64,000 nt of DNA from Octopus vulgaris (taxonomy: Eukaryota). The notes beneath the pieces were generated by a model. It saw nothing but the letters and a program-made list of their open reading frames with translations. It ran no database searches and was not told where the DNA came from. Shown here one piece after another: positions 6,701-50,838 of the stretch. Positions within the stretch are counted from its first letter, which is position 1. Every line of letters starts with the position of its first letter. The stretch is taken from the NCBI GenBank assembly GCA_951406725.2, contig OX597815.1, forward strand, positions 71,982,001-72,046,000, written 5' to 3'. Both the position numbers and the translations under genes were made by a program.

Positions 6701-8472
6701 TCACTGAGGTCCTGGTATGAGTTGTTACATTCATGTCCTCTCTCATTCTTTCTACATGCACTGACCCTTGAGTTGCTCACTGTCATGGAAACTAGAAATG
6801 TTGAGGGACACCCCATAAGAATTAGAATGTTGAATCTAGGCTAAAGGCTTTGCTGTTGTGTCATAATTCTAATGTACCTAACAATTAAATATCAGCCAAC
6901 AGATAAAAGTTAGTCTGAACATGACATTGTTTCCCTGCATTTCTTCATGCCGAGTTAAGCCTTGGTGGTTTGCATTCAGTAATATACCATTACACAATCA
7001 ATAATACTGTCTCAGATGCTTACTTAGTACACACCACAACAACACTGTCACAATTTGTACTATATGCACTGAAATGAAAAATAACCCCACATTAAAGTGT
7101 ACATACTATCATCAGTTAAAATAGCTTAGTCATCAAATCCATGACATTTCCTATAACTAAGAACAATGTATTTCACTTCAACTTTTGCAGAAAAGCAAAT
7201 GCAACTGGCAAAACCCCAAAATCAACAATTCAAGAGCAGTCTGCAGCTTTCAGCAAAAAGAACAGCAGACAATTTCCAAATTAGTCTGAAGACTGCACAT
7301 AAGTAAATAAATAAATAAATAAATAAAGCAAATTGTGAAGTAAATGTATCTGCAATTAGAGACATAGTTGTATTATTTTCTGTCTCTTTTCATTGCTATC
7401 TGCCAGCAATCTTTAGTCTTAGCTGGAAGAAATATGTCATATATAAATATATATAAAATAATTTTTTGCGTAATAAGATAAAGAACCAAGGCTGTGTAGA
7501 TATTAGAGCATTTATAGATAGAAAGTCTTACAGCTGTTTCTAGGATATTTATTAATTATATCCCTTCATTGGAGATGGTGTGAGAGGATGGTTAGGTCAT
7601 AGTTAGTTTAGATGTGATACAAAATAGAGAGTGAGGTGGAGGAAAGAAAATAGATGCAAAATATGTATGGATATTGAAGTTGTAAATCCATTTTTTAGGC
7701 ATAATGGTATATATGCAATATTCCAATATTGTATAAGTAAAGTCCAAAAATCCAACAGAGTTTAAAATGGGTCCTTCCAAATATAGAGTTTATACACAAT
7801 GTAATATTCCCTTATGAGTGAGATCCAGCAGATTTTTAAACTTGGTCATTCCCAAGAATTTATATAGTGTTGCAGAGTCATATATATATATAATATGTTT
7901 ATATATATATATAATATACATACACATTTGCATATATATATATACATACATACATACACACACACACGCACACACACATACATATGTATGTATGTGTATG
8001 TGTATGTGCATGCATATGTATGTGTGTGTGTATAAAATAAAATTAATAAAACAAATTGCTCATTTATATAACTCCTTCCATAACTGTTGTTTCCTCCTCC
8101 TCCTCTCCTTCCCTCTCCCCCTGCAGTGTAGTTTTCCTCTCTCACTGTGTGTGTGTGTGTGTGTGTGTAGTGTTCCTTTACTCATTGCTTGCCACCAAGC
8201 CAAGTATCCACACTCATCCTACACCTCGTATATGAACTCTCTGTGTCTCTCTTTTGTTCACCTTCTTTCCCTCCTTCTCAGTATACAATGTAAAGCATGA
8301 CTGGAGAACCCAACCAGCCAACCAATCAACATTTATATCAGCCATTATTATTATTATTATTATTAAACAGACATATTTTCCAATAATAGATCATATGAAG
8401 AAATTTCTTTTCTTTATCTTCAAAAACAACCAAAATTTCCTTTTCAGTTATTTATAAATTGAAAATATTTCA

Positions 8473-8650
8473 TTACTGCTGCTGCTACTACTACTATTAC
8501 TGATGGTGATGATGATGATGTTGATGATGATGATGATGATGATGATGATGTCACTGCAACTACTACTATTGCTGCTACTGCCACTACTGCTACTACTACT
8601 GCTGCTGCTGCTGCTGCCGTCACCACCACCACCACCACTGCCACCATTAG
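8473..8650. repeat. Compound trinucleotide microsatellite (GAT/CTA/CTG/CCA)
   Basis: Direct reading. Confidence 0.9.
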
Positions 8651-9188
8651 TATGTGTGTGCATAGACAGGAAAAATGTTTTGTCAATCATCTCCATCTGA
8701 TGAGGCATCTCAAACAGTTCATAGATTGCATCTAATTGATAACATTCCCAGGTTTACATCTCAAGTCACGATGCTCTACCAGCCAACCCAGCAAACCTAG
8801 CAAACCCAGCCAGCCTGCCTGCCACCCACCAAGAGATTCTACTGCACAATTTAGTGCACACCCATTGCTTGCACTGAATACACAGTATTGAATTACTAAG
8901 AAAAAATGTCTAAGCTCACTGCAGAATCACCCAGAAAATGAATTAGTTGAACTGCTCAAATGCCTCATTAGATCTATTACCAAGATTTAGTGACATCATG
9001 TCGATTGTCAGGGCCTTGAGGTGAGGCAAGTATTTTGGGGAGAGCAAGCTATTTCTTTCTTTGTTTTCTTATATTTTTACTAATTACTGAATTACTTTAT
9101 TTTTCTTATGAGATTGTCTGCCCCTGCACACTTACATGCATACCTACCAACCTACCTACTTACATATCCACCTACTTACATACCTACT

Positions 9189-9189
<1 letters not shown>

Positions 9190-9260
<71 letters not shown>

Positions 9261-9367
9261 TATGTATGTTTATATATGTATATATATGTATATATATGTA
9301 TGTGTATATATGTATATGTGTGTATATGTATGTGTATATGTATGTGTATATGTGTCTATATATATGG

Positions 9368-9414
<47 letters not shown>

Positions 9415-9430
9415 TGTATATGTATGTATA
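9190..9430. repeat. (TA)n/(GATA)n/(TATG)n microsatellite
   Basis: Direct reading. Confidence 0.9.
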
Positions 9431-10209
9431 TTATTTATATTATTATATGATTGAACACCACAAATCCTTTTCCGAGTAAGTTTTATCTTAATTACTCTGA
9501 TGCGTTCCTTCTATTATTCTTTTTTTTTTTCTCTCTTCCTCCACTATTCCATCCTTTTGCTCTTTCGTTTTCTCTCTACCTTTCTCTTGTTCTTTTGCCT
9601 CCTGTTCTCCCACTATTCTATCCTACTCTTTTGTTTTCTCTCTTTCTTTCTTTTGCCTCCCCTTCTCTCTCTCTCTCTCATTTTTCTCTCTTATCCTGTC
9701 TCCAAATCTTTTCCTCTCAACTTCACAGCTCTCTGTCTATCACTCTCTCTCCCTCACTCTTCTTCCATTGCTCACATGGCCCCCCACGTGACCATCAGCT
9801 ATTCTCCCAACTTGTGTTTCTTTCTTTCTTCATATTTCAGCCGGACAGGGAAGACGTATTGTTCTCTGTCTCCTGTCTAGACTTGTTTCTTTGGGTTCGC
9901 CACCATAACCTCTTCCTATTTGTTTTCACTGTCCTGTTTTTGTTACCAAATTTTACCCTTCGCAAGATCGTAAATTTTATTTAATTTGCTTTGCGGGAGC
10001 AACAGTTTTATCGAAGGCGTATCTTGTCATGAATTGCTTGATATACGCATTAGAAAAACAGCTGACAACTGATGAAGGGTCGTTCCTTGTGTTGCTTGTC
10101 TTGTTTTCCATTTGTTTCTTTCGTTGCTTGCAAAAAAGACCTTATTCCATGTTCTCATACTTCGTATTTTTTGTTGTTTATGTTTTATGACATCCTGTGC
10201 ACACTTATG

Positions 10210-10296
10210 CATATGTATATACATATATTTGTAAGTATGTACGTATACGTATGTATATATGCATATATATATATATATAAATATTATTTATATTAT

Positions 10297-10328
<32 letters not shown>

Positions 10329-10440
10329 CCTACATATATATACATATAAATATACACACATATATATGTGTGTATATATATATATATGTGTGTGTATGTA
10401 TATATATGTATATGTATATATATATATGTATATGTGTATA

Positions 10441-10534
<94 letters not shown>
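10210..10534. repeat. TA-rich microsatellite
   Basis: Direct reading. Confidence 0.9.
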
Positions 10535-10539
<5 letters not shown>

Positions 10540-13012
10540 ATCGAGGTAGTCAGAGTATGTGACAGAATACTTAAGATTAGATTAGTGCTCCATCATAGTT
10601 TAGCAACTATTATATCGGCCTATGCCCCTCAGCCAGGGCTACCCGATGGACAGAAAGACTGTTTCTATGACACCCTACTGCAAACCACCTCATTGACGAA
10701 TGACAGGGGCCTTCTCTTTGTGGCTGGTGACTTCAATGGGCATGTTGGACAACATGCTGGGGGCTTCCATGGCGTACATGGAGGCTACGGTTATGGTTCC
10801 CGCGACGAAGAGGGAACCAGGCTGCTGGAGTTCTGTGATGCGAATAGTCTTATGGTTTACAACACTAACTTCAGGAAACCAACAAGCCACCTGGTCACCT
10901 ACCGATCGGGCCGGCATACTAGCCAAATCGACTACATCCTTGCCAGAAAAAGGGAAAGATGGCTGCTATGAATGCCAAAACCTTCCCAGGTGAAGAATGT
11001 ACCCCACAACATAGACTGGTAGTTAGTGACTTTAGGATCAGGACTAAGAGGACGACTAGAAGACGACCAACATAGAGAAGAAGGGTCTGGAAGCTTAAAG
11101 ACCCTGCGAATGGACAGAGATTTAGAGACATGTTACTTGAAGCCTTTGACGAAATAGAAGGGGGTATAGCTACACACAGGGTAGAAGACAACTGGACGCT
11201 TCTAAGGGACAACCTGCTGAAAGCCACTGACCAGATCTGTGGCTGGTGCAAAGTCCCCTCAAGACCCAAAGTAACGTGGTGGTGGAACAATATTGTTGAC
11301 AGGGCTATTAGACAAAAGAAACAGGCTTGGAAGGACTGGAAGAACGGTGGTAGCAGGGAAGTGTATCAGACTGCCAGAAGGGAAGCTAGGAGGCAGGTGT
11401 ATTTAGCCAGAGGGGAAGCAGATAAGAAAAAATTTGCCAATGTTCTGCACTATGAGGATGAAAGACTTGAGGTATTTCGTGTAGCAAGACAGTGTGTGAG
11501 AGAGAATCATGACGTGGTAGGAGAGAAATGTGTTCGCAAGGATGACAGCTCACTTGCACTAAATGAGGATGCAAAGAGAGAGGTTTGGAGACGCCACTAT
11601 GAAAGGTTGCTGAATGAGGAAAATGAATGGGATAAAGAGAGTCTGCCGAATGTCGACCCAACAGAGGGACCAGCAACCCGAGTTGACAGTTCCTTAGTAG
11701 TTAAGGCAATTACAAGCATGAAAACAGGGAAAGCCCCAGGCCCATCAGGAATTACTGCAGAGATGCTCAAAATATCTGGTAGTGTCGGCTATAGCCTAGT
11801 CACCCGTATAGTTAACCAGGTGATACACGAAGGAGTCATACCCAATGACTGGTGTAGCAGCATAATAGTCAACTGCTACAAAGGTAAAGGTGACGCCCTA
11901 GATACAAATAACTACAGGGGTATCAAGCTGCTGGATCAGGTAATGAAGGTTACAGAGAGGTTTATAGCCCAACTAATTAGAGAGAGAGTTAGTTTAGATG
12001 AGATGCAGTTTGGGTTCATGCCAGGGAAAAGTACTACTGATGTTATATTCCTGGTAAGACAGCTGCAGGAGAAATACCTAGCCAAAGATAAGCCCCTGTA
12101 CCTGGCTTTTGTTGACATGGAGAAAGCCTTCGACAGGGTCTCCCGATCCCTTATCTGGTGGTCAATGAGAAAACTAGGGATAGATGAATGGTTAGTGAGA
12201 GCTGTGCGAGCCATGTACAGAGACACTGCTAGTAAGGTGAGGGTTGGCAACGAGTACAGTGAAGAATTCCGGGTAGAGGTTGGGGTCCACCAAGGTTCAG
12301 TCCTCAGTCCCCTCCTATTTATCATAGTCCTCCAGGCAATAACGGAGGAATTCAAGACAGGATGCCCCTGGGAGTTCCTCTATGCTGATGACCTAGCTCT
12401 AATTGCTGAGTCACTATCAGAACTGGAGGAGAAGTTTCAGGTGTGGAAGCAAGGATTAGAATCGAAGGGCCTTAGAATCAACCTAGCCAAAACCAAAGTC
12501 CTAATAAGTAGGAAGGTAGACAAGTCACAAACGCCTTCAGGTAGATGGCCCTGCTCGATCTGTAAAAAAGGTTTAGGTAGAAACTCTATAAGGTGCACCA
12601 AGTGTAAGCTATGGACACATAAGAGGTGCAGCAATGTCAAAAGAAGGCTCACTAGGAAAATAGTTTGTCTGTGGCAGATGCTCAGGAGCAATAAACACTG
12701 AAAATGTGCGGAGACCAACTTCTACCACGTTCCAGGGAGAAAAACTAGAAGTAGTTGATAGCTTCCGCTACCTAGGTGACCAAGTCAGTAGCGGGGGTGG
12801 GGGTGCTGAAAGTGTAACTGCTAGAGTAAGTATAGCCTGGGCAAAGTTTAGAGAGCTCTTACCCCTGCTGGTGACAAAAGGCCTCTCGCTCAGAGTGAAA
12901 GGCAGACTGTATGATGCATGTGTACGTACAGCCATGCTACATGGTAGTGAAACATGGGCTGTGACTGCTGAGGATATGCGTAAGCTTGCAAGAAATGAAG
13001 CCAGTATGCTCA
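10535..13012 (+). mobile_element. RTE-clade LINE ORF: APE endonuclease, reverse transcriptase and Cys/His finger; disrupted and truncated at both ends
   Basis: [22 protein letters not shown] (APE); KGKGD..NYRGIKLL, QFGF, AFVDMEKAFDRV, GVHQGSVLSPLLF, LYADDL (RT); CSICKK..CTKCKLWTHKRC; FRYLG. Frameshifts or stops near 10970, 11070 and 12660. Confidence 0.95.
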
Positions 13013-13042
13013 AAGTTACTCAAAGTTCATTCTCACTGCATT

Positions 13043-14104
13043 GTGCGAAAGTACATTTATATGCATATAGGCATCTCGATAGATGTTCAGAAATTCTATT
13101 AAGTATCTTCTCATTAGTCTACAGAATAGACAGGGATTCCTGAAGTAGAGACGGCATTTCCTGGAAATTACATTGTATGGTTTTGCATGTCTAACTATGG
13201 ACCAATTAATGTTGTACTTCAGTCGCCATATAAAAGATGTCGAATGTCCCTTATTGATTGACTTAAAGCTGGCAACATGATTATAATAACGATTTTTAAA
13301 TGAATCAACCATCTGCCCAATGTAAACATGGGCCCTCCCCTTGTGTGCATGGTACATTTATATACAAGATTTGTACTCATACAGAGCTTCATCAAAGGAC
13401 ATTTTAATTTATCTCTGCATGAGCATTTATCATATTTATTTGTATATAAGGCAGTCCCGACTCCATTTACCGGCATTTTTATCATGCTAGCTGTACCATG
13501 AGTATTTCTACTACTACAAATTGGTCGAAGTTGATGATTATCAATGTGGTTTATATCTCCTTGGTTGGTATTTAGATGCAAATGTATGCTAGATCCAGTA
13601 GGTGGGTTATTGATCCTTTGCCACATTTTGCTATTGTTTATGCAATGCATAAGCTGCTCTAAATTGGCAGAGTTGGCATAGGATACCTTCACAGTGTGTT
13701 GATTAAAAATAGCATGATACCAATTAGATTTAGGAAAACACTTGTCCAAAGCAGCAAAAAATTTTCCAGTGATCCTGGTTGAAACATACAAATCAAAAAT
13801 TGGGTTGAACCAGAGGACATCCTGATTCCTATATCTGTTGTTTGGCTTATTTGATCAAGTGTGCTGTACAGGATTGGAACAAGCAGTTGAATTACTACGT
13901 CACATGTGTCTATGAGTTTTCTTAAGTAGTTCATTGACATGACCAATTCTTTCTGGCCTGTATTCTTTATCCAAGTAATTTCCAGGAGATGCCATCTCTG
14001 CTCCGAGGAATCCCTGTCTATTCTGTGGATTAATGAGAAGATACTTAATAGAATTTCTGAATGACTATTGAAATGCCTACACGCATATAAATGTACTTTT
14101 GCAC
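13043..14104 (-). mobile_element. Penelope-like GIY-YIG endonuclease fragment with an inverted duplicate of its 3' end
   Basis: KFFAALDKCFPK..IFNQHTVKVSY, CSCRDKLKCPL..C.STNLVYKC, VYIGQ..FKNRYYNH, WSIV..AKPYN..RKCRL. Arms 13043-13171 and 13975-14104 are inverted copies. Confidence 0.8.
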
Positions 14105-14227
14105 TCTGAAAGTGACTGTGCTTTACCAGTGAGCTACCAGATGTAAACCATTCGTTTTATTATCCATTATATATATGTGTGTGTGTATACATGCATTTAC
14201 ATACATACATTCATGCATACATACATA

Positions 14228-15000
14228 TACAGGATGTTCGAGCAAAATTTCACAAATTTTTCTGTTTCTTTTTTTCAGGAACAGCTTGATGTATTGGTGA
14301 ACATCATTGGAGGACACAAAGATTAAATTTGTAGTTGAGAAAAAGTTAGCCAACATGGAGGACTTGAAACTATCTGAATACTGGCAAAGAGTTGCCTGAA
14401 TCATGGTGATTCATATTAGCTGTCAAATGCCATGACCGCTGCTCAATGCTCTGTGAACATTGTAAAGGCTGTAAGACTTGACATGGATAGTTGGAATGGT
14501 GACTATGAAGCTGTGGCCAGCAGGAAGGGACACAGTAAACTTTCTGACAGTGGCCAGAAGCCCGAATTCATCCAACAACTGATGAACATAGCCATAGAAT
14601 AAATTCAGATGGTTATGTGAAGCGACTGGACACTGATCAATTCCTGACTGAAGAAGGTTGCTGCTGAGAGGCCATATGTGTGACAGCAGGATTTGCCACC
14701 TTGTCATAACTCCTGAAAGAATCAGAAGTGGTGTCAGAGAATTTCTACAACTTCACAGTTCCTATTTCTGCCCTCCTAATTTTCCCACTTGTAATTCTAT
14801 GGATTACTATGTATGGGACATGGTTGATAAAGATATCAACTGCTCTTCCTGCAACACCAAGGCTGACCTGATGACTAAGATCAAGGAAGTGTTCAAAGAT
14901 CTTTCCAAAGACACAGTTAGGAAAGCATGCACCAGGTTCTGGGGCTGTCTTGAGGCTATAGTAGAAGCTGAATGCAGCCACTTGGAATAAACTGTTATCT
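14228..15000 (+). mobile_element. Tc1/mariner-superfamily relic (DDD-type C-terminus)
   Basis: PPNFPTCNSMDYYVWDMV..KACTRFWGCLEAIVEAE resembles the WPPNSPDLNPLDY..W motif. Confidence 0.7.
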
Positions 15001-15731: not shown

Positions 15732-15764
<33 letters not shown>

Positions 15765-15964
15765 CGATGAATTTTGGAATTTTTGCAAAAAGTGAAATAT
15801 GATAAAAATGTAAAAAGGAAATTTTCATTTTGCATTTAGTTCACAAGATTCTTGATTCAAACTTATGTGTTGAAACATATCTTGTTGTATCTTGGGAGGA
15901 TTGTTATGCCAATAATAAATACATGCACTGGTTCAGTTTCACTTCTTTAGTGTTTATTTTATGC

Positions 15965-16671: not shown

Positions 16672-16834
16672 CTGAAAAAAGAGGAAAAGTAAGAGAATGA
16701 AAGATTAGATTAAAAATAAAATAAAATTTTGTTAGATAAACCAATATATACATATTACTTACAATTAATTATTGAATGACAAAGGAACAGGAAAGTACAT
16801 AATCAACTTCCTTAGCTTACATTAGCAATCTTAA

Positions 16835-16916
16835 TGGCTCTGAAGAAGCTATAAGATGTTGCACAAGCACTCAGCTCTGATGCACAGCTTCTTATAGCAG
16901 AAACAACTATAAGCTA
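16835..16916 (+). ncRNA. Hammerhead-ribozyme-like motif with extended stem II (degenerate stem III)
   Basis: UGGCU CUGAAGA A GCUAUAAGA...UCUUAUAGC A GAAAC AACU AUA AGCUA. Confidence 0.5.
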
Positions 16917-17084
16917 ATGATGGTGAGTATGTAATTCCAGTTTTCTTATTGTTCAATATTTAAAATTAAAAATGATGCTTTGTACTCACCTAACACTTTT
17001 ATTCTAAAATATATATATATAAATTGACTTCTAACAACTGGTTTTTAGTATCACTATGCCAAAGCAAAATCATATTCTTTTACT

Positions 17085-21000: not shown

Positions 21001-22075
21001 ATTTAATACTATAACCCAGTGCCATTCCTCTAATACTTTATATCTAATAGTCTATATTTTACTAGTATAAGTTTTAGCATTAAATAACTATAAGTTAGCA
21101 AAACAAACAACCACAACCCTTCTGGTCCAGTCCATTTTTGTCCCTATTCTTCAATTCCTCCTTCTTCTGCCTTCTGACAACAATGAATCCCCTATCCAGC
21201 TCCTATATTACATATAACCATATACAGTAGATTCCCCCAATAGATAGATATATGTTTTATATTTTTATATGTTTATACTCTTTTACTTTTCTTATGCTGT
21301 CCTTTAGGATCCCCTTCCTTTAGTTCTATTATTTTAGTTATCGCATTTACTTATTTACTTGGTTTTAATTCTATTTTTCTCTTTTACTTGCCCATACTGG
21401 CAATGGTTTATACATTTATTTTGTTTGTTTTTGTCTTAACTGTTAACCATCAACGAACCAGAACTACGTCATGGTTTTCAAAAAAGAAAAAAAACTAATT
21501 AGGCTGTAGGACTGATCATGACCCCACCCCACTCACTACACATAGGGATTCAGAGACTTGTTGATTGGCAAAAACATAACAGACACTAACACCACATTTT
21601 AGTCATCATCTGGTTCCTTACTCTCACTAGTACACTTATATTCCAAATTTTCCCATGATGGTCTCACCATCATAGGCTTTTTAAGCCATACCATCCGCAA
21701 CATTGCACCTACTAGCAGGCACTTTATATATGAACTTTCACCTCCAGAACATGAACCACACTTTCAAATCCACCACCGTATTTCTATGTAAACATAATGC
21801 GAACTACTACCTAAATTCACCCTTCCTAAAAACTCCTCTCAAGAATGACTATACTCACCTATCCACCATTGGACGAGATAACATGGATCCTGGAATACAT
21901 CATGGGAAGTTTGTAGCTTATTTCCCCTTCCTATACCTAATCCATTTTAATAAATTATACTTCTTTCACAGCCTCATGTCTGCTCCTATTCTTTTTCTGC
22001 CCTTTTTAATGACAAATACACTGTACCTATTGTTAACTGTTTATTATATGTATTAGCCCTCCTAAGCACTTAGAC

Positions 22076-22198
22076 CCTCTGAAGAAGACTAGAGGCACAC
22101 TCATCATCCAAACTTTATCTGCCCATCCCAACAGAACACTTAAGAGATGGAGATGACATGGAGGATTTCGTTGCCTCTTGGCAGAAACAGCCGTAAGG
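22076..22198 (+). ncRNA. Hammerhead-ribozyme-like motif with a long stem II insertion
   Basis: CCU CUGAAGA A GACUAGAGGCA..(about 75 nt)..UGCCUCUUGGC A GAAAC AGCC GUA AGG. Confidence 0.55.
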
Positions 22199-22465
22199 AA
22201 CTGATCTTTTGCTCTTTTCTGTAATATTAATACATGTTTGTGTATTTACATCTATCACATGTTATAAGAAAGAGACACAAATGCATGAGTTACAACATGT
22301 GTATGTTTTTTTCTTATAATACCTTCTAATACTTTCTAATGCTTTGGAATAAATAGACACACTGGAATGTCTGCCAGATGATGTATGTTGTTTTGTATTC
22401 TCTCCATTTTCTTATTTGCCGAATATATATACATATATATATTTACACACACACATATATCTGTA

Positions 22466-22520
<55 letters not shown>

Positions 22521-23139
22521 GTTGATTCACTTATATGTGATAAATTACAGAACTCAATACATAATTGTAGAGTATTCTTTAAAACATAATAACTGAAAGG
22601 CTCCTAAATCTAGTTCTCAGAGTCACACATTTCCAATCATTCAGCTGTTAATCTGAATCTATTTTCTCTTGAAATATTCACTGTTTGAATATATTTGGAA
22701 ATATTACATGAATGTTATCAAAGAAAATGTTTATTTATTTGTTTTAAATTGAGCAAGTGACATGTGTAAAATGCAGCAGTTTCTGGTCAATGTTTTCCAT
22801 CTCATTTCTGACTCTTGTGAGAATACTCCCAAAATCTTAAACTTCATTCATGAATGTGTGTGTGTCTGTCTGTGAGTGTGTGTGTGTGTGTGTGCACGCA
22901 TGCACGTGCACACATATGGAGGCATGCATTTGTGTCTCTTTCTTATAACATGTGATAGATGTAAATGAGTATCACTGTTATACAAGTGGTGTTCTTCATT
23001 TCTAATCTTCCATCCAAACATGTCCAGCCATGACAGGGAAACCAACAATACCTTGTTTCCCATTGAGAAAAGGAATCAAGTCGTATAACAGTCTGAGAAA
23101 ACAAAGGCAAAATGTAGATTTTTAAAGAATTAATCTTAC

Positions 23140-27709: not shown

Positions 27710-28310
27710 TATTGGGTCATCCCATAAATAATGCCATTTTCTTTCATTTTCTACAATGCTTTTCCATCTATCTGGTAGACTTGCAAGGCACCTCTTTCAA
27801 AATTCACTTGTCTGTGATGAAAAAGACTCCTCCACTACTGTTCTGACCTCGTCAACAGAATTCATATTTTTTCCGTCCAAATGATTTCGAAGACTATTGA
27901 ATAAATGAAAATCAGATGGGGCAATGTCAGGTAAATATGGTGGTTGGGGCATGGTTTCCCATTCAAACTGCTCTGGGCTTTGGAATGTCATCCTTGTTGT
28001 ATGTGGCCATGCATTATCCTGACAGAAGAACACCATCTTAAAACCACTCAAGCTGCTCACAGTAGATCTCCTTTGTTATTGTCTGTTATCATATCCCACC
28101 AAACAGATAACAACACATTACGTGAATGAAGACCTTCTTTAGCCTGGGGTGCCATTGTTTCTCCTTTCCCAACCCACTGTCTTTTGACATTTTTATAGAG
28201 AACCCATTTCTTCTCACCAGTCACTATTTGGTCCAAAAATAGTTCATTCACGAGACGTGACAGCAAAGAAGGGCACACATTCACTCCCTGCATGTGATTA
28301 GATACATGAT
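27710..28310 (-). mobile_element. Mariner (DD34D-type) transposase relic, 3' part
   Basis: IVTGEKKWVLYKN..VLLSVWWD; QDNAWPH..PYLPDIAPSDFHLF. TIR-like TATTGGGTCATCCCATAAATAATG. Confidence 0.88.
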
Positions 28311-29292
28311 GAAGGAAAGACAAGTCAATACATTAACAATATCCATGGAGTCACAGTAGATACCAGATATTGGTTGAGTATAACTATACATATCTACCTT
28401 AGGGTCCTTCCCTCTAGATTTATTATAGTGATATACTCCTCCAGAGCCAGTCCCAGCCTTTCATCCTTCAAACTTGTGTTCTGGTGCAATGAGTGCCACA
28501 AGCCCAGTAGCTATCAGGATGCAGTGCTTGAATGGATTACCTTCTCTTGGATGAGCTGCTAGAGTTGAAGGACCTTATCAGCTCTGGGTTCACTGAGGTG
28601 TCTGAGTGACTTTCTTCTGTGACATAGTAATTAACTCATAGTTGGAACCCTGAAAGATGCTACTACACCATGTGAGTGTAAATCTGGGAACAATAGTGGC
28701 TAACGGGTGATTCCACATTTCTCAAGACCCTGGAATTTCTGAATCAGGGCTCCACTACTGGATGCGGTTTAAAGTCATAGCCAGAACATAACAAGGCTAT
28801 ACAAACCATTAACCCATTAACATTTAAACCAGCCATTTCCAGCCCAAATTTTCTATCTGTTTTAAGTTAAAACTGACAAGATCCAACTTCTCACACCTCC
28901 CCTACAATGTCATTCTAAAAATATACAATCACATCAAGGAAATGCATGATTAATTCAAAACAATGTGAATAAATAAGCGACATATTGGACAAAGAAATCT
29001 GAATGCTAAAGGGTAAAATATATATACAACTATACACATACATCCAGATAGCAGATAAGTAGAGTCATTAGAACACTGAACAAAATGCTTTGTGATATTT
29101 ATTCCAGTACTTTGCGTTTCATCCATCTACAATCAATAGGAAAAACACCTGTCTTGGGTGGTAAACTGACAGAAATGTTAGAACTTTGTACTATTTGTTC
29201 TGGTTCTTTGCATTTTGACTTCAAATCCTTCTGAAGCCTGTAGCTCACTTGCTTGGTTTAAAATCCCCAGCTGATCTTTAGGTGCCTTTAGA

Positions 29293-34769: not shown

Positions 34770-35520
34770 TAGGTTGAATCGTCAAGAAATCATTCAAGAG
34801 AAAGTGTTGTCTTTGTTTGAGGACCTGAAGAAAAAGTATCTAGATGAGAAAGATGTAGAGTTCAAGGCAAGTCAAGGATGGTTCGTGAGATTTAAGGAAC
34901 GAAGAAGTTATCACTCCATTAAGAAGTAAGGTGTAAGTGCATCACCTGACGAACAGGCAACAGCGGAATTTCCTAATGCATTAAAGAAAATCATCGAAGA
35001 AAACGAGTTTTATTCCGAGCAGATTTTTAACGGATGAAACTGGATTGTATTGGAAAAAATTGCCAGACCGTTCATTCATTTCCAAGGACGAGAAAACTAT
35101 TCCAGACTACAAGGTCTCAAAAGAATGTGTGACCATTATATTGGGAAATAACTGTGTAGGAGATCTTAAGTTAAAGCCATCGCTTGTGTATCATGCACAC
35201 AACCCCCCGTGCCCTGAAGAACATACCCAAGGCATCTCTCCCTGTTATATTGATGGCTAATTCAAAAGCATGGGTTACTGTTGTTGTTTTTGAAGATTGG
35301 TTCTTCAATCATTTTATCCCAGCAGCAGAGACGTACTGTAAGGAGAAGAGGATTCCTTTTAAGGTTTTACTTATCTTAGATAATACTCCTGGTCACCCAC
35401 AAAACAACGTAGATTTTGACTCCAACGTTACCGTCGTATACCTCCCTCCGAACACCACATTTTTTCGGCAGCCAATGGATCAGTGAATAATTGCTATCTT
35501 CAAGCGTTACTATATGAATT
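34770..35520 (+). mobile_element. Tigger/pogo transposase relic (CENP-B-type HTH plus DDE_1)
   Basis: FKASQGWFVRFKER; IFN.DETGLYWKKLP; NSKAWVT..FEDWF; LLILDNTPGHP..YLPPNTT..QPMDQ; frameshifts present. Confidence 0.92.
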
Positions 35521-40889: not shown

Positions 40890-40985
40890 ATCTGATGCAA
40901 TCAATACAGTTTATTACACAGATTAATTTTTTTTATTAACTGATATTGCAAGTAACTAGTGTTCCGGTAGCGCATGTGCATTAGT
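40890..40985 (+). promoter_or_regulatory. Putative TARS proximal promoter
   Basis: TGATGCAAT (CARE/AARE) at 40893-40901, TTCCGG (ETS) at 40962, GCGCATGTGCA (NRF1-like) at 40970-40980. Confidence 0.55.
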
Positions 40986-40998
40986 ACTTTGAAACAAC

Positions 40999-41058
40999 AT
41001 GGCTGACGAAGTGCTGACGAAACCGATGGAGGAGTTGAAAGTTTCCGGAGAGAAAAAG
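40999..41058 (+). CDS. TARS1: Threonyl-tRNA synthetase exon 1a (cytosolic N-terminus), GC donor
   Basis: aacaacATGG Kozak context; MADEVLTKPMEELKVSGEKK; AAG|GCATGC is the plausible phase-0 donor before the TAA at 41074. Confidence 0.75.
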
Positions 41059-41113
41059 GCATGCAGGATTATGTAAACTTTTACACTTCTTACTAGTTTA
41101 GCAAAACTCAAAT

Positions 41114-41191
41114 ATGCTTTCCTGGACACGTCTTTCTTCGTTGTCGCAGAGAATAGGATTGCGATACGCGAAGACTTTAACTAGGGTGTGT
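41114..41191 (+). CDS. TARS1: TARS alternative exon 1b, putative mitochondrial presequence
   Basis: MLSWTRLSSLSQRIGLRYAKTLTRVC|GTGAGT; phase 0, Arg/Ser/Leu-rich, no acidic residues. Confidence 0.68.
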
Positions 41192-42258
41192 GTGAGTTTC
41201 TCGTCATTCAGTCGGCGTGTGTTGATATTGCCTCCTTAGATTTTACATACATTTATGTATATGTACATATATATGTTATACACTCTCCTTTCTGCTCGAC
41301 TTTAATTTGCGTGTGATTCCTGTAGTAGATTTAGTTATTTCAACTAACTGTTTTGCTTGGTTAATAATACTTTTGATGCTACTTCGCTCCATTTCTCTAT
41401 TCGTCTTATACTGTTATAATTCGTTCCCTCATCGTACCTGAAATATTAATTTCATTATATATATTAAAAAAGCAAGTGGGGGGGAGCAATAAGAAATACG
41501 TCCAACTTGTAACGATTTATATGTACTAATATACAACCTAAAAACACCAAAATATCAATTTTATAAGTCTTTTTTTCTTCCTTTCTCTATATCTATTGAT
41601 CAATTGATTTGCTTTTCTTTAACTTACGTGGACAGGTTTATGCTGAGGTCAGTCAAATATCTATTATGTTTAATTATGTCTTACATATTTGACTTAACTC
41701 ATCCTTTAGAGGGAAGTCTGTCTCATTCCAGCATTGTTGTTTAGTCCAAGGTCGCCCCTCATCGAATTGAACTAAGGTTAGAGACATTGAATTCCAAACA
41801 CAACTGGAATGGTCGCTATTTATTTCTTACGCCAAGTGCTCCCTAAACTTCAGAGAGAATATATAAAAAGCCACAGGTCGATGGGACTTATAAAGGGGTC
41901 TTTCAGTACATTGAATGAAAACGTTAAAACATAGTACACAGTATTAGTTAAGGCTGCACCTGAAATACGACACTCATACAAGTACATCGAAATGGTAGAA
42001 AATGCACAATGTAGAGCCACGAAGCTTGTGGTATATGAGGAACGACATGGGAAGCAGGCTTTTACCAATTTACATGGAAATATGAAAGAAGCAGTCTTTG
42101 TTTTACGATCCAGAAAATGAACCCACTGTACTCAGCAGACTGCCCCTAGCCGGAAACTCGTTAGTAAAATAGAAGGGAAAGAATTGTTTTTTTTTTTTTA
42201 AACGGAAAATATATTTCGGAACATAAACAAAAGGAAACCAACATAAAAGAATACACAT

Positions 42259-42478
42259 ACACGAGGGGTGCTGAAAAGTTCCTGGTTTTGGATAAAAGAA
42301 AATACGAGAGTATCTGTTAATTATGATTTTGCTCAGCATATTCTCCCTCTCAGATTCACACACTTACTGCAGTGGTCCTTCGGTTATTCTAAGCCCTACA
42401 AAAGAACTCGGTTGGGCTTCCACGCAGGTCTTTCGTGACACCCCTAAAACCAGGAACATTTCAGCACACCCTCGTGTG
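42259..42478. mobile_element. Mariner-type MITE
   Basis: TIRs ACACGAGGGGTGCTGAAAAGTTCCTGGTTTT / AAAACCAGGAACATTTCAGCACACCCTCGTGT. Confidence 0.8.
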
Positions 42479-45400
42479 TGTGTTTCTCGAGAGATACGCC
42501 TATCTTCGTCTTTTGTTTTACTATTAATTTCAATTATATATATAGCATAACTACAGTTTGGTGCCCCTACCCGACTCAGTTTTCTCATAACTGTCTGCAA
42601 AAAGTGCGCATTATTTAATTAGATTTTGTAGATAGGTTTTCGAAGGCGTAGCCCACAATTTAGTCGATAACGTTAATAAATTTTTAAGTAGAGTTTCAAA
42701 TTATTTTCAATACCCTCCCGGTTGTTTTTCCTCATAACACTTTTTGAAATACATATTTTTAAATGTCTTTCTACACAAATATGTTTATGGGAGTGTACAT
42801 TATATAGTTTTGATGTTTCTAATGTATAAATTAGGGTAAAAATATTATTTTTATCAACTGATATTGTCCTAGGTTTTATATGCTTTATTTTATATTAAAA
42901 AAAGAAAAAATACACGCCTTCAAAATTTACTAATTTTAAATTTTAGACTTTTCAGAATTTTTTTTTCAATCTACGTGAAACAATACAGGGATTTTAACAA
43001 TCTTTACAGTTTAGTCATATGAACATAGAAAGTGCACTTTACATACCTGCTTTAATGACATTTCCTCACTTCAATATACAACAATACATTAAAAATCGAA
43101 AGTGAAACAATATCAAATATACGATCTAAATCTAGTTCAGTGTTTTCACTTTCTAGATCATAAACTGAAAGTTTCCCATGAGAGGTTTTAAAGCAGAAAG
43201 GTGGTGGTATGATAAAAAAAAATATGCAAACTTTAATCGAAACTGATCATGAGGAAATATGCGTTTTGTGAGTCTTGAATAGTTGGAACGATCTCCAGGG
43301 AAGTTTGAGGTGAACTCAAAATCGGTGATGAATTTTTGAATGATTGGATCATGCTAGTTCACACTGTAAAGTTGTCCAGCTATAGAAACTATACAGAAGT
43401 TAACATTAGGTCCTGATGCAGTTCATTGGATGTTGTCAAACTGTCCAACTCATCCCACCTTGAAAAAAAAAGCAAAAAAATTCTGTAATAAAGGGAACAT
43501 ACATAGATGTCATGACCATCATTAAGGATTGGTGTCATAGGCATAGGCAGGCATTTTATGAGATGTCATCTTATAAATAACCATCTCAGCCTATGTTATC
43601 CAGTGTGTCCCTTCCTAAAATGATAGGTTGTGGTTTGAGGGAGACTTAACTACTATTTCTAGCTAATCAAGTGACCGCAATGAGCAAGAGTGTTAAAATC
43701 ATTTGGCTTTGTAGACTTGATTGAAGCTTAACCTAAATCCTGAACTAAGGAAGAAAACCCTACAATGTAGGTAAGCATTGTAACAACTTTATTAGCATAA
43801 AGAAAAAGAAAGAATTTTATGTACAGAGATGTGTAGGAAAACTCAATCACGTGTGTGTGTATATATATATATTTATATACATACACACTCACACAATATC
43901 ATTGAATAAGAAAATGGTACACCAATATTAATCATAACTTGAGTTGGTCTCTGACTCAATGCATGCTTGTGATAAAAGTATTTTACAGAATATTTTTAAA
44001 TAATGATAAAAATTTATCTTTATAAGATGGTGCAGGCATAACAGTGGTAAAGACATTTGCCTCTCAATCATATAGTTTTTGGCACTCCCATTGTACAGCA
44101 ACTTGAGCAAGGGACTTCTGTCACCCTGAGTCTACTAGTGTCTTGTGAGTGGATTTGGTAGATGGAAACTGTGTCCTTTGTTTTTGTATCTTTTTGTTTT
44201 GATATCATATGATGGTTATATAAAGATCATCCCTGTCGTAAAAGCAAGGAGAGATGTCATTCATTTCCAATCTCCTGTGAAAATGTGTCCAGCACTGGGT
44301 AAATATTATCTTGCTCTGAAACAAGTGGTGGTCAGCAACAGGAAAGGGCATTTGACTGTAGAAAAACTTTACCTCAAATAAACTCCAATCCATACAAGCA
44401 CAGAGAAGTGGATATTAAAATATTGTTGAGGAGGAGGAGAAGCTAGGGCCTGGACTAAACATTGTTACTGGTTGTGTTTGTTACCTTTCACATGGAGGTT
44501 GGCTTGCCTCTATGTCAAGTAGAAGAGGGAGATGTATGTATGTGTATAATCATACCAACATACTTCTGCATAGTGAAGTTATTTCTTTCTGGTGTGCGAA
44601 ACAGTCTAAAGTACTAATAAGGTGAGAAAGTGGAAGGTTTGTGTCTTCTAAACATCTTGTCACTTTCAGATATTTCATATCAATTGTTGTTGAGATAAGC
44701 TGTGATTAGACAACCCTGTGATCAAACACATTCTAGCTGTGACTAACTCATTTATTATTAAGATATATCAAAGAATATGTTATTGTCCTCTTAATTTTTT
44801 TAGGATGGTAGGATGTGATTTGAGAAGTATTTTGCTGCTATTTCTAGCATTGAGGGACCATGTAGTACCCTTTCTCCTTTAGCATTCACATTATTCTATC
44901 AAACATAATGCTTATTTATTCACATTGTTTTGTATTAACCATGCATTATTTTGTAGCTTTAAGACTTCAATGAGGTAACTTGATTTTTAGAATGATATAT
45001 GGTGTGAGAGGCCATATCTGGCCAGTTTGAACGTAAAACAGTAGAATATTTTTGGCTAGATATGGTCAGTTTAAATGCTAATGGGTTAAGTTGTAATATG
45101 TTGAGTGTGTAGAACATTGCCAACTTCTCAAGGTGAAGTACTTTTGGGTTCTGAAGAGTAAAATGTTGAGGCATAGTTTTTAGCTAGTGTTTATCACTGA
45201 TCACATACTGTTGACAAAAAAAAAACAAATATCTAAGAATCTTTTGTGAAGAGCTGTTGCAAACATAACATTGTTACACTAAAACAAACAGTTAGGTAAT
45301 ATCCTATTGAACTCTAAGGCAGCAAGCTGGCAGAATTGTTTGCACACTGTGTAAAATGCTTAGTGGCATTTCATCTGTCTGCATGTTCTGAGTTCAAATT

Positions 45401-46286
45401 CTGCCATGGTCAACTTGGCCATTCATCCTTACGGGGGTCAATAAAGTAAGTACCAGCTGAGTTCTGGAGTTCGATGTAATGAACTTGCTGGCCTAGTGCC
45501 AAAATTTGAAACCAATATTTTCTTGAAATCTTAGGAAATCTTGGCGATTCTGAAAATAAATTAAAGCATATATCCTAACTGATACTTGCAATCATCATAT
45601 GACCACTTTTCCATGCTTGCATGAGTCAGGTGGAATTTGTTGAGGTAAGTTTTCTACTGTTGTCAACCCTCAACTATTTCCAAGCAAAGTATTTCTCCTT
45701 GTTTTTCACACAAGGCTAGAAACAAACATCTCTTGTATGATGGTAAGGGTACACACAAACATACACTCATGGATTTGCAGACACACACATACATGCACAT
45801 GCTGGGCTTCTTTCAGTTTCCATCGACCAAATTCTGCTATAGCAGAAGGCACTTGCTCAAGGTGCCGCACATTGGAACTGAACCCAAGACCATATGGTTA
45901 TAAAACAAGTTTCTTAACCACTCAGTCTTTGTTTCAATTAATAGTGAATATAAAAGATTTTATTAAAATAACTGGTGTTAGGATAGCTGATGTTTAGGAC
46001 ATTAATTAGCTTAAAATTTCGATGGGTGGTTGTAATTAAGATTATTTTAAATCGAGGAGGTTGAATCTTAGAACCAGGGTTGGGTTTCAGAAGGGTTGAT
46101 AACATTCATAAGAGAAAGAAATGCAGTTGCAGTTGTATGGTTAAGGTGTTTCTCAACCACATGGTGTGGGATTGGTTCCACCGTGTATCACTTTGGGCAT
46201 GTGTCTTCTGCTACTCATATATCTCTGGGCTGACTAAAGCCTTGTCAGTGTATATGGGAGATGAAAACTGAAAGAAGCTTGCCATA

Positions 46287-46440
46287 GGTGTGGCTGTGTG
46301 GTAAGAAGTCTGCTTCCCTACCACATGGTACTGGGTTCAGTCCTATTGCATGGCACCTTGGGCAAGTGTATTCTACTATAGCTTCCGGCTGATCAAAGCT
46401 TTGTGAGTGGATTTGGAAGATGGAAACTGAAAGAAACCCA
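46287..46440 (+). mobile_element. CORE-like tRNA-derived SINE (third family)
   Basis: TGGCTGTGTGGTAAGAAG..GGTTCAGTCC..CACCTTGGGCAAGTG. Copies also at about 46133, 50583, 58538 and 63287. Confidence 0.75.
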
Positions 46441-46462
46441 TCATATATAAGTATAATTTATA

Positions 46463-46688
46463 ATAAGGGCATTGGAACGCCAACACCTGCCCGCTTGAAG
46501 TAGACCCCAAATGGGCTACAAACCACTTAAGTTATTACTCCCTTACCAAAAGATTGTATGCGAGGAAAATGGACAGAAAGGATTTCCTTACATACAACCT
46601 TGTGGTAAGGGAGTAATATCTTAAGTGGTTTGTAGCCCATTTGGGGTCTACTTCAAGCGGGCAGGTGTTGGCGTTCCAATGCCCTTAT
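46463..46688. repeat. Near-perfect long inverted repeat (hairpin)
   Basis: Arms 46463-46560 and 46591-46688: the outer 69 bp pair perfectly, with 3 mismatches over 98 bp. Confidence 0.95.
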
Positions 46689-46787
46689 AATTATATTTTA
46701 TAATTATACTTAAATATAAATTAACCATTATAGTCTTGTTAGTATGCTGGCCACTGATAAATCATTAAATAATGACTTTATCCTAAT

Positions 46788-46818
<31 letters not shown>

Positions 46819-47710
46819 CTGTGTGTATGTTGGTCTGTTTACATTCCCATAACTTAGCAGTTCAGCAAAAGGGACTGATAGAATAAGTACTGGGCTTAAA
46901 AAGAAAAGTCCTGGGCTCGATTTGTTCATCTAAAACCCTTCAAGGCAGTGCTCCAGCATGGCTGCAGTCAAATGACAGAAACAAGTAAAATAATATGTTT
47001 ATGTCCTTGCTTTAACATTGCATAACAGTTATGAGTTCCGTGAAATGGAGACAAGGTGTCACAAATATACACGCTCATATATGACAAGCTTCTTTCAGTT
47101 TTCATCAGCCAAATTCATTCACAAGGTTGTAGTACAAGTGACTTGTTTAAGGTGTCATGGATTTGGTTAGGAAGTAAACTTGTTAACCATATAGTCACGC
47201 CTATGTTTATCTGTCCTTTATAAATATCTAGCCTTTTACCAATGTTAGAAATCATTATTCAACAGTTGAATAATTCAATTATGACATGCTGTTACTATAA
47301 TCAAACACAGCTGTATGTGTCAGCTATATATATATATATATATATATGTCTTATTGAATAAAGGTTTTTGTATTTTATATTTCATTTATCTCAATGTATT
47401 TGTTGTATATTCATAATATAGTAGAAGTGAAATCATAAAAGACTTTAAACCTGACTTGTGTGCTATTATTAACATACCCAATTCAGGCAGAACAAACATT
47501 GCAATATATACATATATATTTATATTATCATCATCATCATTGTTTAACGTCTGCTTTCCATGCTAGCATGGGTTGGACAATTTGACTGAGGACTGGCGAA
47601 CCAGATGGCTGCGCCAGGCTCCAATCTTGATCTGGCAGAGTTTCTACAGCTGGATGCCCTTCCTAACGCCAACCACTCTGAGAGTGTAGTGGATGCTTTA
47701 TATATATATA

Positions 47711-47746
<36 letters not shown>

Positions 47747-50281
47747 CTGGCAATAACTTCTCTTGCAGCCTGGTGTTCTTTTGTTCATTCACTTTTACAT
47801 CTATTTTTTTTCCATGCTAGCATGGGTTAAACAAGTATGGTAAGAAAGGATCTACAAACATTGGAACTCTCAGAAGGGATGACAGGGAACCGAGACTCCT
47901 GGCAGCTTGCTGTGCTTGAGAAAGCACATCAAGCTAAGTAAAACCATGGTTGTCCTTGCATACAGGCTTATCCTCTGCATCCTTCTCCAGCTGAGCATTC
48001 CTAATCTTGCAGGCTCGTGGGTGCTGGTGCCACTTATAAAGCGTCTGTACCAGTGCCACGTAAACAACCATGCCAGTGCCGCATAAAAGCACCCAATACA
48101 CTCTGTAAAGTGGTTGGCATTAGAAAGGGCATCCAGCCATAGAAACCATGGCAAAATAGATTGGAGCCCAGACAGCTCTTCAGCTGACCAACTCCTGTCA
48201 AACTGCCCAACCTATACTAGTATGGAAAGTGGCTGTTAAATGATGATGATTGAAACTCTGTTTTACAGCTAGCTGTCCTTTCTATCTCATAACCCTCACT
48301 TTTTTTTTTGTTCAAAGTAAGGGATTCCTTTTTCATGCATCTTTGAAAGCATGAAGTGAGCGAGTGATTTGTTGATAGAAGTGACAGCAGCAACACTAGA
48401 AATTTGTATTCAAAAAATTGTTAAAATATTTTTTGTATTGTGTTTACGTGGTTCGGCAAAAAGAGGCCGATAGAATAAGTACTGGGCGATTGAATAAGTT
48501 CTGGGGTCAATTTGCTCGACTAAAGGAGGTGCTCCAGCATGGCCGCAGTCAAATGACTGAAACAAGTAAAAGAGAGAAAAGAGTATTGTAGAAGTATAAC
48601 CAATTTATCGTACAGAAACATAAACTATAAAATCTTGTGTAGACCCCACAAGGGTCATGTGGACACTGGTTGAGAAACACTGCTGTAGACAATTGTAAAT
48701 ACAATATTTTGTATTCTGGGCAGCTTAGGGTTATTTATAATTTTTGATTGTTAAAGCAGTGAGCTGGCGGAATCATTAGCTTGCCAGGTAAAATGCTTAG
48801 TGGCATTTTGTCTGTCTTTACATTCTGAATTCAAATTCCACCAAGGTTGACTTTGCCTTTCATCCTTTCAGGGTGAATGAAATAAGTACCAGTTGAGCAC
48901 TGAGGTTGATGTAATCAACTATTCCATCCCTCTTTGCAAAATTTCAGCTCTTGTGTCTCTAGTAGAAAGGAATGTTTGATCTTATTGTACTGATTGCTAC
49001 TAGGAGTATGAGTAGTTGAGCCATTTTAGTATCATTGATTCAATGCTGACTTATTTGACATCAGACATTTTAATGTTTCTCTTGTTTTCCCTTCATCTCT
49101 TTCTCTGTTTATGTGGATGAGGAGAAGGAAACTGTTTATGTCAGTCATGTTCAATTAATAAATTGTAATGTTTCTCTTTCTCTCTCTGTGAACATCTAGT
49201 TATGTTTGCATGTGTACACTCTCTCTCTCTCTCTTTCTCTCTCATCATCATCGACATATAATGTCCGTTTTTTTTGCTGGCATGGGTTGGATGGCTTGAC
49301 AGGAACTGACGAGGCCAGGGGCAACACCACATTCCATCATCAGTTTTGGCTTCGTTTCTACAGCTAGATACCCTTCCTAATGCCAACCACTTTACAGAGC
49401 ACATTGGGTGATTTTTGCAAGGCACCAGCACCCACACCAGTGCTTTTTACATGGCACCTTGATTTTAGGATCTCAATTCTGTTGTGGTGGGTAGGTCTTA
49501 CATCTATGTGCATTTGCCTGCAGTGCCAAAATATGTTGAATGTCCAGTCAATAAGGTCAAATAATCAGCATCCTAAAAACTCCACCCTGTCATATCATTC
49601 CATGCTACCAGCATTTGTTTAATTTTTGATATTTCTATTGTCAGTTATTCTCTATACTTAACTAAAATGTGAACCTCTTTCATAGACATATTATTATCTG
49701 AGGGAGTGGTCATAGCTATGAGTAGGTATTTTCTCTTCAATTTTCCAGTTTTGCTTGGTCACTTTGCAATGATTGTTCAGTTAGTTTAGTCTGGTGTATC
49801 ACAATGTAATAATGCTATTGTTTCTTTCTTTCTTTCTCTTTCTATTTATTTATTCATTAAAATCTTGCTATACTTGACAGTTTATGTGAAAGCATGTGGT
49901 TAGGGTGTTTATTGTCAGATTGTTTCTATTCTTGGACCAGGCAGTGCATTGTGTTCTTGAGCAAAAACACTTCATTTCACACTGCTCCTCTCCAATCAAC
50001 TGTAAATGAATAACCCTGCAACAGACTGGTGCCCTGTTCAGATGGAAATACTGTGATCTCAGTTTTATATCGTGACAATTGGATAACTAGCCCTCTTAGT
50101 CCTTGGACTAAAGTCAGTTCTTGTATTTTTGGTTTCAGTGAGTTTCAGGCTGAAACAGGGAAAAGAAATTTGTCTTTGTTCTTTTGATATTTTTTTAATC
50201 AAATTTCTTCCATATCTTACTTGAACTGTTTTACTGCAAATAATTATAGAAGTGTTTTTTTTTTTTTTTGTTTTTTTACAG

Positions 50282-50341
50282 GCATCTAAAAATACGAAAA
50301 AGTCAAAAGAGGATAAGAATAAGAACAATGCTTGTTCAGAG
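50282..50341 (+). CDS. TARS1: TARS exon 2 (Lys-rich)
   Basis: polyT-acag|ASKNTKKSKEDKNKNNACSE|gtaaac; 60 nt, phase 0/0. Confidence 0.8.
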
Positions 50342-50790
50342 GTAAACTTTTATTATTTCATATTTATTTTACATTTAATTTTTCCACCCTCTAAGCTTGA
50401 ATGGGAATTCTGCTAATATGGATAGGCACAGGTGTGTCTGTGTGGTTTAGGATTTATGTACTGAAATTATGTTAGACTTTGACAACATCATCAGTCTTTA
50501 TTTCTGTTCATTGATGACACAATGTGTAACTCACATTCTAATCCTGATAAAGACTTATATTGAAAATGTGTTTAAAATATAGTGACTGTGTGGTAAGAAG
50601 CTTGCTTCCCAACCACATGGTTTCAGGTTTAGTCTCACTGCATGCTACCTTGGGCAAGTGTCTTCTACTATAGCTTTGTGAGACAGAAACTGAAATAAGT
50701 CCACTGTGTGTATGTGTGTGTGTGTGTATGTTAAATAAAATGAGACAACAATGTGTGGAATTTTCAGGACATTTATAAAAGAGAAAGTTA

Positions 50791-50838
50791 GTCTTACAGC
50801 TGTTTCTGTGATATTAGGGATATCCCTTCATCAGAGAT
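50791..50838 (-). ncRNA. Minimal hammerhead-ribozyme-like motif
   Basis: UCU CUGAUGA A GGGAUAU-CCCUA-AUAUCAC A GAAAC AGCU GUA AGA; palindromic ACAGCUGU stem III. A related copy with a mutated core lies at 7525-7576. Confidence 0.6.

Follow-up and report, generated by a model that had tools for sequence, protein, structure and literature searches.

The stretch analysed here, referred to as the window, comprises 64,000 nucleotides (nt) of the Octopus vulgaris genome (assembly GCA_951406725.2, contig OX597815.1, positions 71,982,001 to 72,046,000), an AT-rich, microsatellite-rich eukaryotic sequence in which an initial annotation, made from the letters alone, had placed a dispersed family of variant hammerhead ribozymes. 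Four loci are concerned; their common layout is core-A-(stem II)-A-GAAAC-N4-RUA, and stem II is flanked by an extra A at either end in every case (4/4). Loci 1 and 4 form one family (A), being 77% identical over 79 nt with homology that spans about 240 nt; loci 2 (family B) and 3 (family C) have only the core in common with them, and the four loci therefore represent three families. From its organisation, the octopus motif would work like the hammerheads of Penelope-like elements (PLEs), and probably is one of them. The features of the four loci, with stem lengths in base pairs (bp), are as follows.

7526..7575, minus strand: motif of locus 1 (family A), with the core at 7572-7566 carrying two substitutions (CCAAUGA) and GAAAC-AGCU-GUA at 7540-7529.
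7575-7573/7528-7526 and 7564-7542, minus strand: stem I and 7-bp stem II of locus 1, the latter with G-U closing and a 9-nt loop.
7565 and 7541, minus strand: extra As of locus 1.
7472..7700, minus strand: copy of the family A repeat in which locus 1 is embedded; homologous to 50735-50976.
16835..16916, plus strand: motif of locus 2 (family B), with an intact core at 16840-16846 and extra As at 16847 and 16899.
16835-16839/16912-16916 and 16848-16898, plus strand: stem I and 51-nt stem II domain of locus 2, the latter with 9 perfect pairs and G-C closing.
16900-16911, plus strand: second box of locus 2, with AACU-AUA; the 15.2-16.2 pair and the palindrome are broken.
16715..16820, minus strand: truncated copy, in inverted orientation, of the stretch from 16910 to about 17030 that comes after the cleavage triplet of locus 2; lower boundary approximate.
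22076..22198, plus strand: motif of locus 3 (family C), with an intact core at 22079-22085 and extra As at 22086 and 22183.
22076-22078/22196-22198 and 22087-22182, plus strand: stem I and 96-nt stem II domain of locus 3, the latter with G-C closing.
22184-22195, plus strand: second box of locus 3, with AGCC; the palindrome is broken.
50791..50838, minus strand: motif of locus 4 (family A), with an intact core at 50834-50828 and extra As at 50827 and 50807.
50837-50835/50794-50792 and 50826-50808, minus strand: stem I and stem II of locus 4, the latter with G-C closing and a 5-nt loop.
50806-50795, minus strand: second box of locus 4, GAAAC-AGCU-GUA, with the predicted cut between 50795 and 50794.
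50735..50976, minus strand: copy of the family A repeat that contains locus 4, 5'-truncated near 50974 and with a (CA)n run at its end.

The stem II domains measure 23, 51, 96 and 19 nt at loci 1 to 4, respectively, and the long ones are predicted to form extended hairpins, with further pairing beyond the perfect pairs at locus 2 and a long hairpin at locus 3, where positions 2 and 4 are mismatched. At locus 4, a copy-specific break is found at 50809, in position 2 beside the closing pair. The core boxes are whole at loci 3 and 4, locus 1 has the two core substitutions and locus 2 the broken 15.2-16.2 pair, and the AGCU palindrome is off by one substitution at locus 3 and by two at locus 2. 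The copies present in the window are probably dead or weak. This point decay had been correctly described in the initial annotation (core CCAAUGA at 7525, AACU-AUA at 16835, AGCC at 22076). Its four loci are also real, but those at 7525 and 50791 belong to one family and do not count as independent cases, and the palindromic stem III that it attributed to the whole set is complete only at these two loci (2/4) and broken at 16835 and 22076. Regarding the sequences around the motifs, a 44-nt inverted duplication, 100% identical, was observed just downstream of locus 3 (22244-22287 and 22923-22966). A splice-donor-like hexamer lies 12 nt past the cleavage triplet of locus 2, with a branch-point-like and an acceptor-like sequence beyond it (16924-17050, plus strand), and the triplet of loci 1, 3 and 4 itself opens a donor-like GTAAG; the terminal repeats of PLEs can carry introns.

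The loci were located with a relaxed descriptor run on both strands in nine registers, which allowed 0-2 unpaired nt at either flank of stem II. Exactly these four motifs came out in the 1/1 register, with the coordinates and strands previously assigned to them, all being A/A; the 2/2 register gave two of them again, and the other seven registers none. When 300 windows obtained by dinucleotide shuffling in 1-kb blocks were used as a null, one locus was found in two of them (2/300) and an A/A locus in none (0/300). The descriptor was written after the loci had been seen, so the significance derived from the shuffles is overstated. This post hoc wording, together with weak folding z-scores, could be put forward in favour of chance resemblance, which is nonetheless refuted by the absence of A/A loci in the shuffles, by the family A contigs and the compensatory pairs described below, and by the fact that matches to the boxes alone in other sequences lack the stems; we consider its probability virtually negligible. 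Specifically, none of the 49 matches to the box sequences in a metagenome collection (48 loci) had both stems, nor did any of the 22 found in prokaryote genomes (21 loci). Among the matches listed for viral contigs (122 from two related patterns, one of them listing 120 of about 200), three had both stems; they correspond to one sequence, which was rejected because it has G at position 17. This viral sequence (contigs L077, L147 and L160), which combines both boxes and both stems, is plausible as protein-coding.

Searches of other kinds did not recover the motifs. A strict hammerhead scan of the window, requiring at least four unbroken pairs in stem II, at most one core mismatch and a paired 15.2-16.2, missed all four loci, since each of them has a lesion, and returned two unrelated weak matches. 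Three descriptors of published type gave 0, 0 and 1 matches in the window, the last one being poor and located at 41003. As had been anticipated, a curated search also misses the loci: no hammerhead family was present among 147 Rfam matches at E up to 10, nor in scans restricted to locus 4 or locus 2. Two further stretches of the window resemble parts of a hammerhead. At 2727-2763 (minus strand), an intact first box is followed by a 6-bp hairpin and GAAA, without a valid cleavage triplet, and then by the first box once more; at 10040-10100 (plus strand), a repeat has an AGCU palindrome box directly followed by a CUGAUGA box and a short hairpin, as if the halves of a hammerhead had been swapped, and no valid core could be drawn.

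Stem pairs were counted from the core anchors, since the alignment made with MAFFT left the stems out of register. Helix I has 3-5 bp across the four loci; its positions 1 and 2 are invariant, and position 3 is U-A, U-A, G-C and C-G. In stem II, the first position is occupied by G-C at three loci and by G-U at the remaining one; three different Watson-Crick pairs occur at position 3, and two pair types at each of positions 2, 5, 6 and 7. The numbers of paired positions among the first seven were 7, 6, 7 and 5 at loci 1, 4, 2 and 3, and comparison of this in-register pairing with shuffled stem II domains gave P values of 0.002, 0.005, 0.0007 and 0.054, in the same order. Whole-locus folding z-scores were not significant (0.22, -0.78, -0.90 and -1.88). 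There is compensatory pairing between families, in which covariation involves three sequences of stem II as well as one pair of stem I. The proposal that stem II pairing is kept holds to that extent, with the corrections that at 22076 the stem does not correspond to AGAGGCA but starts at G22087 and has two mismatches, and that at 50791 it is broken in position 2.

Family A was also followed in contigs from 4 of 24 listed runs, which were aligned to 50735-50990 at 80% likeness. The number of aligned contigs was 2525 in X1, 2455 in X3, 2348 in X14 and 42 in X12, counts which, like depth, do not equal copy numbers; the three large runs (X1, X3 and X14) are DNA runs and carry three organism labels. 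The summed depth of these contigs peaks over the ribozyme, and family A is a large, dispersed, high-copy family. At 50809, where the window copy has lost a G-C pair, 94-96% of the depth has the base needed to re-form it, and at 50838, 83-89% has the base that adds a fourth pair to stem I. Among the variant rows listed, no substitution or indel affects any core base or either extra A, at 50807 before G12 and at 50827 after A9, no variant is found in the dimer palindrome, and there is no large insertion in the loop. Counting variants with shares of 5-60% in X1, they were found at none of the 43 core and stem positions versus 18 of the 177 flank positions (Fisher p = 0.017) and at one of the five loop positions; in the upstream flank alone they reached 15 of 74 positions (p = 0.0006 versus core and stem), while the downstream flank is also little variable. 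This tally took 26 of the 40 listed rows; 13 were left out for being below 5% in X1, and the remaining one, an additional letter at 50862 (12%), would raise the flank count by one. Because no variant is listed at the core or the extra As, and because the majority base repairs the stem break of the window copy, the extra A before G12 looks family-wide in family A. The variant shares were alike in X1, X3 and X14, from which we infer that the expansion of family A may be older than the split of the sources of these runs. The notion that stem II houses an expandable cargo was not borne out: its length differs between families, and the listed rows of family A contain no such expansion.

Minimal hammerheads with a small helix III have been described in the pseudo-long terminal repeats (pLTRs) of metazoan PLEs (Cervera and De la Pena, 2014; PMC4209133), where they are characterised by an extra nucleotide after A9, a G10.1-C11.1 pair, a palindromic 15.2-16.2, a long helix II and a short helix I. 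The octopus loci share with them the type I topology with the CUGANGA/GAAA/NUH core, one extra nucleotide (A, 4/4) after A9, a short helix I, a helix II of at least 7 bp, the palindromic stem III and the presence as dispersed single copies, so that the assignment of the motif to the Penelope-like kind made in the initial annotation agrees with the published traits. G10.1-C11.1 is likewise present (G-C in 3/4, G-U in 1/4) if the A before G12 is counted as an optional extra N11; the descriptor of these authors permits extra nucleotides on both sides of stem II, including "a possible extra N11" (PMC4209133). In their alignment the consensus of the 5' extra nucleotide is H, not A alone; one of the 56 examples, probably the PLE of Cotesia bracovirus according to line order, has AGAAA and the other 55 plain GAAA, and the entry of D. 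willistoni has an AGCU loop III (PMC4209133). Differences also exist. In octopus, three families within a single genome have both extra As along with a palindromic stem III that bears a loop, and families B and C have stem II domains of 51 and 96 nt as opposed to the 7-bp stem and 10-nt loop of the descriptor. There is no cephalopod among the 56 examples, and no PLE open reading frame (ORF) could be tied to the octopus copies. The published descriptor would miss the octopus loci, as it has no loop III and limits stem II to 7 bp and loop II to 10 nt.

The initial annotation had framed the two As as an A.A mismatch in place of the canonical 10.1-11.1 pair. In that form the claim is not supported, given that the G-C closing pair is kept in three loci, with G-U in the fourth, and the As flank it as insertions. 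The simplest reading would be a retained G-C closing pair with one A inserted on each side, rather than the loss of the 10.1-11.1 pair, because the published descriptor and alignment show both extra nucleotides. A related alternative, compatible with a PLE origin, is that the two As do pair as an A.A mismatch that replaces 10.1-11.1 under G12.A9, with helix II shifted by one step. Both positions are A at the four loci and in the three families, and neither has a variant among the listed family A rows; set against this, the 5' extra nucleotide is commonly found without a 3' partner in the published alignment (55/56 with plain GAAA, consensus H; PMC4209133), and G-C still comes next in 3/4 loci, as in the published consensus. 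We regard this pairing as possible, at clearly less than even odds. A bolder version, in which several octopus retroelement lineages would have fixed a dimer-cleaving core with an A.A pair stacked between G12.A9 and stem II, the latter having grown into a 50-100 nt arm with its own role (protein binding or tertiary contact), seems to us doubtful. With the retained G-C pair, the extra A before G12 could either bulge out or face the extra A after A9 in an A.A mismatch.

Natural insertions of single nucleotides in the hammerhead core exist, and some are active (Perreault et al., 2011; PMC3088659). Those named in the accessible part of that paper are found after A6, in GAAA (U13a) and near C3, and an insertion between 11.1 and G12, as in octopus, is not among them; according to the same text, the filter applied discarded mispairs beside the core (PMC3088659). 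There is published precedent for each feature of the octopus motif except the very long stem II. Neither this combination in octopus nor a description of the A/A variant in this animal was found in the literature searched; the work of Lunse et al. (2017), outside that search, may cover the latter.

With respect to the carrier of the motifs, an origin of the four loci from PLEs is likely, on the basis of indirect signs. PLEs typically leave inverted 5'-truncated copies and partial tandems, according to the accessible part of Craig et al. (2021; PMC8557442), and similar structures are seen here: the inverted, truncated copy that adjoins locus 2, and opposite-strand joints in the family A contigs, of which two fall within stem I, at 50837. 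Single contigs of X1 and X3 also have a go-back joint, located at 50835. The inverted copy is 74.5% identical to the sequence downstream of locus 2 over 55 nt (BLAST), with a mean column identity of 73% over a longer alignment, and has G at 16.2 where the locus 2 ribozyme has A. The repeat annotation of O. vulgaris assigns 6.83% of the genome and 190 families to PLEs; ribozymes are not mentioned in the accessible portion of that source (PMC13282606). NCBIfam, a translated cross-comparison and scans of viral contigs provided no usable protein link between the loci and PLEs.

This lack of a PLE protein tied to any locus, along with the small size of the family A copy (only about 240 nt), would fit carriers that are non-autonomous repeats, similar to short interspersed elements (SINEs) or retrozymes, instead of PLE terminal repeats. 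Animal non-LTR retrozymes, which contain a type I hammerhead in a non-coding repeat, as the octopus copies do, are organised as tandem arrays and have been proposed to derive from PLEs, as stated in the available part of a preprint (bioRxiv 10.64898/2026.07.22.740005), so that even this assignment would lead back to PLEs. In contrast to those arrays, the octopus copies are single and dispersed, and nhmmer found no further unit next to any of the four loci. Furthermore, the family A contigs continue upstream of 50974 with common sequence, which indicates that the window copy is truncated. SINE-like or retrozyme carriers are therefore, in our opinion, quite improbable.

Remnants of PLE-like proteins were observed elsewhere in the window. 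The C-terminal end of a GIY-YIG-like endonuclease, interrupted upstream by a microsatellite, is found at 2245-2418 (minus strand); it shares 63% identity with P0121, which has GIY-YIG clusters among its Atlas neighbours. Its sequence points to the presence of PLE-like elements in the window, without a link to the four loci. Decayed frames at 21685-21927 (plus strand), upstream of locus 3, include a short stretch like this tail (E about 0.9), for which phmmer and Atlas gave no support. Broken frames at 13016-13854 (minus strand), truncated by a neighbouring reverse transcriptase element, resemble the reverse transcriptase thumb, Cys-rich linker and GIY-YIG domain of a PLE; they gave no database match in Pfam, NCBIfam or a homologue search with the 13219-13854 remnant.

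The short stem III raises the question of how cleavage could take place. PLE hammerheads with a short stem III cleave as dimers (Lunse, Weinberg and Breaker, 2017, as cited in the review PMC6765202), and the octopus motif resembles these, as far as the review describes them, in its very short palindromic stem III, for which dimer cleavage would be expected. Loci 1 and 4 have a self-complementary octamer at 15.1-16.1, with a predicted energy of -11.1 kcal/mol for the duplex versus +2.4 for the hairpin, which would favour the dimer. We propose that, once an active tandem element had been transcribed, the 2-bp stem III of its RNA would be too weak alone, and two copies would pair through the octamer; the dimer would then cut after GUA, probably slowly or with the help of a protein, and process the element RNA. 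Reverse transcription would subsequently scatter truncated and inverted copies, which would decay. Locus 4 also contains a self-complementary 12-mer (50816-50827), whose competing fold wins in the prediction for the monomer; a common loop variant of family A at 50817 (34%) would disrupt this fold.

Alternatively, the motif might be kept as a landmark for protein binding or reverse transcription, self-cleavage being weak or dispensable. Low activity, even of dimers, was reported for the PLE hammerheads (Cervera and De la Pena, 2014; PMC4209133), and the accessible part of a study on the PLE Poseidon states that its hammerhead cut only in the presence of protein, that core mutants had no effect on insertion in vitro and that no RNA-seq ends were located at the cut site (Frangieh et al., 2024; PMC11167929). 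However, the catalytic positions and the dimer palindrome are free of variants among the family A rows listed, which fits selection for catalysis, and we consider a role limited to that of a landmark unlikely.

The window contains the coding exons of threonyl-tRNA synthetase, mapped from 40999 to 60916 on the plus strand; the exon at 53204-53341 is a 98% match to the enzyme of O. vulgaris/O. bimaculoides. The repeat copy of locus 4 lies antisense within an intron of this gene, a location that could bring to mind the domestication of the motifs by the host for regulation of nearby genes. Nevertheless, this antisense position in the intron makes a host role of locus 4 unlikely, its stem break is not shared by about 95% of the family and decay has affected all four copies, so that domestication seems very improbable. 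The gene has two alternative first coding exons (40999-41067 and 41114-41221, both on the plus strand), one similar to the start of the O. vulgaris protein and the other to that of an Argonauta isoform, resembling a mitochondrial targeting peptide, which suggests that a single gene serves both compartments. Other elements of the window include a 541-amino acid ORF at 11076-12701 (plus strand) with a reverse transcriptase domain (RVT_1, Pfam, E 9e-31), within a long interspersed element of about 2.5 kb; DNA transposase remnants identified with Pfam at 4307-4915 (minus strand, DDE_3) and 35175-35486 (plus strand, DDE_1), and others recognised by eye at 14652-14990 (plus), 27797-28332 (minus) and 61357-62317 (minus); and a tandem repeat at 1309-1814 with a period of 102 nt.

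Taken together, we interpret the four motifs as decayed type I hammerheads from three octopus repeat families, likely ribozymes of PLE terminal repeats in which a stem II closed by G-C has one extra A at either flank and cleavage would proceed through a dimer, a reading to which we would give a probability of roughly 75%. Several observations weigh against it. None of the four copies is intact, each carrying a lesion. With regard to the carrier, the search for a reverse transcriptase or endonuclease upstream of the four loci gave no relevant Pfam match in 12 frames plus 6 more, phmmer found nothing with the ORF upstream of locus 3, and Atlas returned a single match (0.76), unnamed, for the sequences upstream of the loci; inverted matches of the size of that at locus 2 were present in 5 of the 75 tiles of the window, this one included. 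As for conservation, the genome-wide sampling covered family A only, the variant shares are depth-weighted and come from contigs at least 80% alike, and 11 substitution and 6 indel rows lie outside the listed family A variants. Finally, G12 is the general base of the hammerhead, and an insertion beside it could reduce activity.

If the motif is active, the consensus of the hammerhead core would be widened at the position beside G12, and a search worded with optional nucleotides on both sides of stem II, a loop III allowed and a long stem II would recover a large octopus family missed by Rfam. Should the reading with the stacked A.A pair be true, these repeats would offer a natural test case, with thousands of copies, showing that insertion of a purine pair is tolerated at the junction beside the catalytic G12. 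The biology of PLEs is unchanged by this finding, both insertions having been foreseen in the 2014 descriptor; the motif would serve as a marker for otherwise unrecognisable Penelope-like fossils in the genomes of cephalopods.

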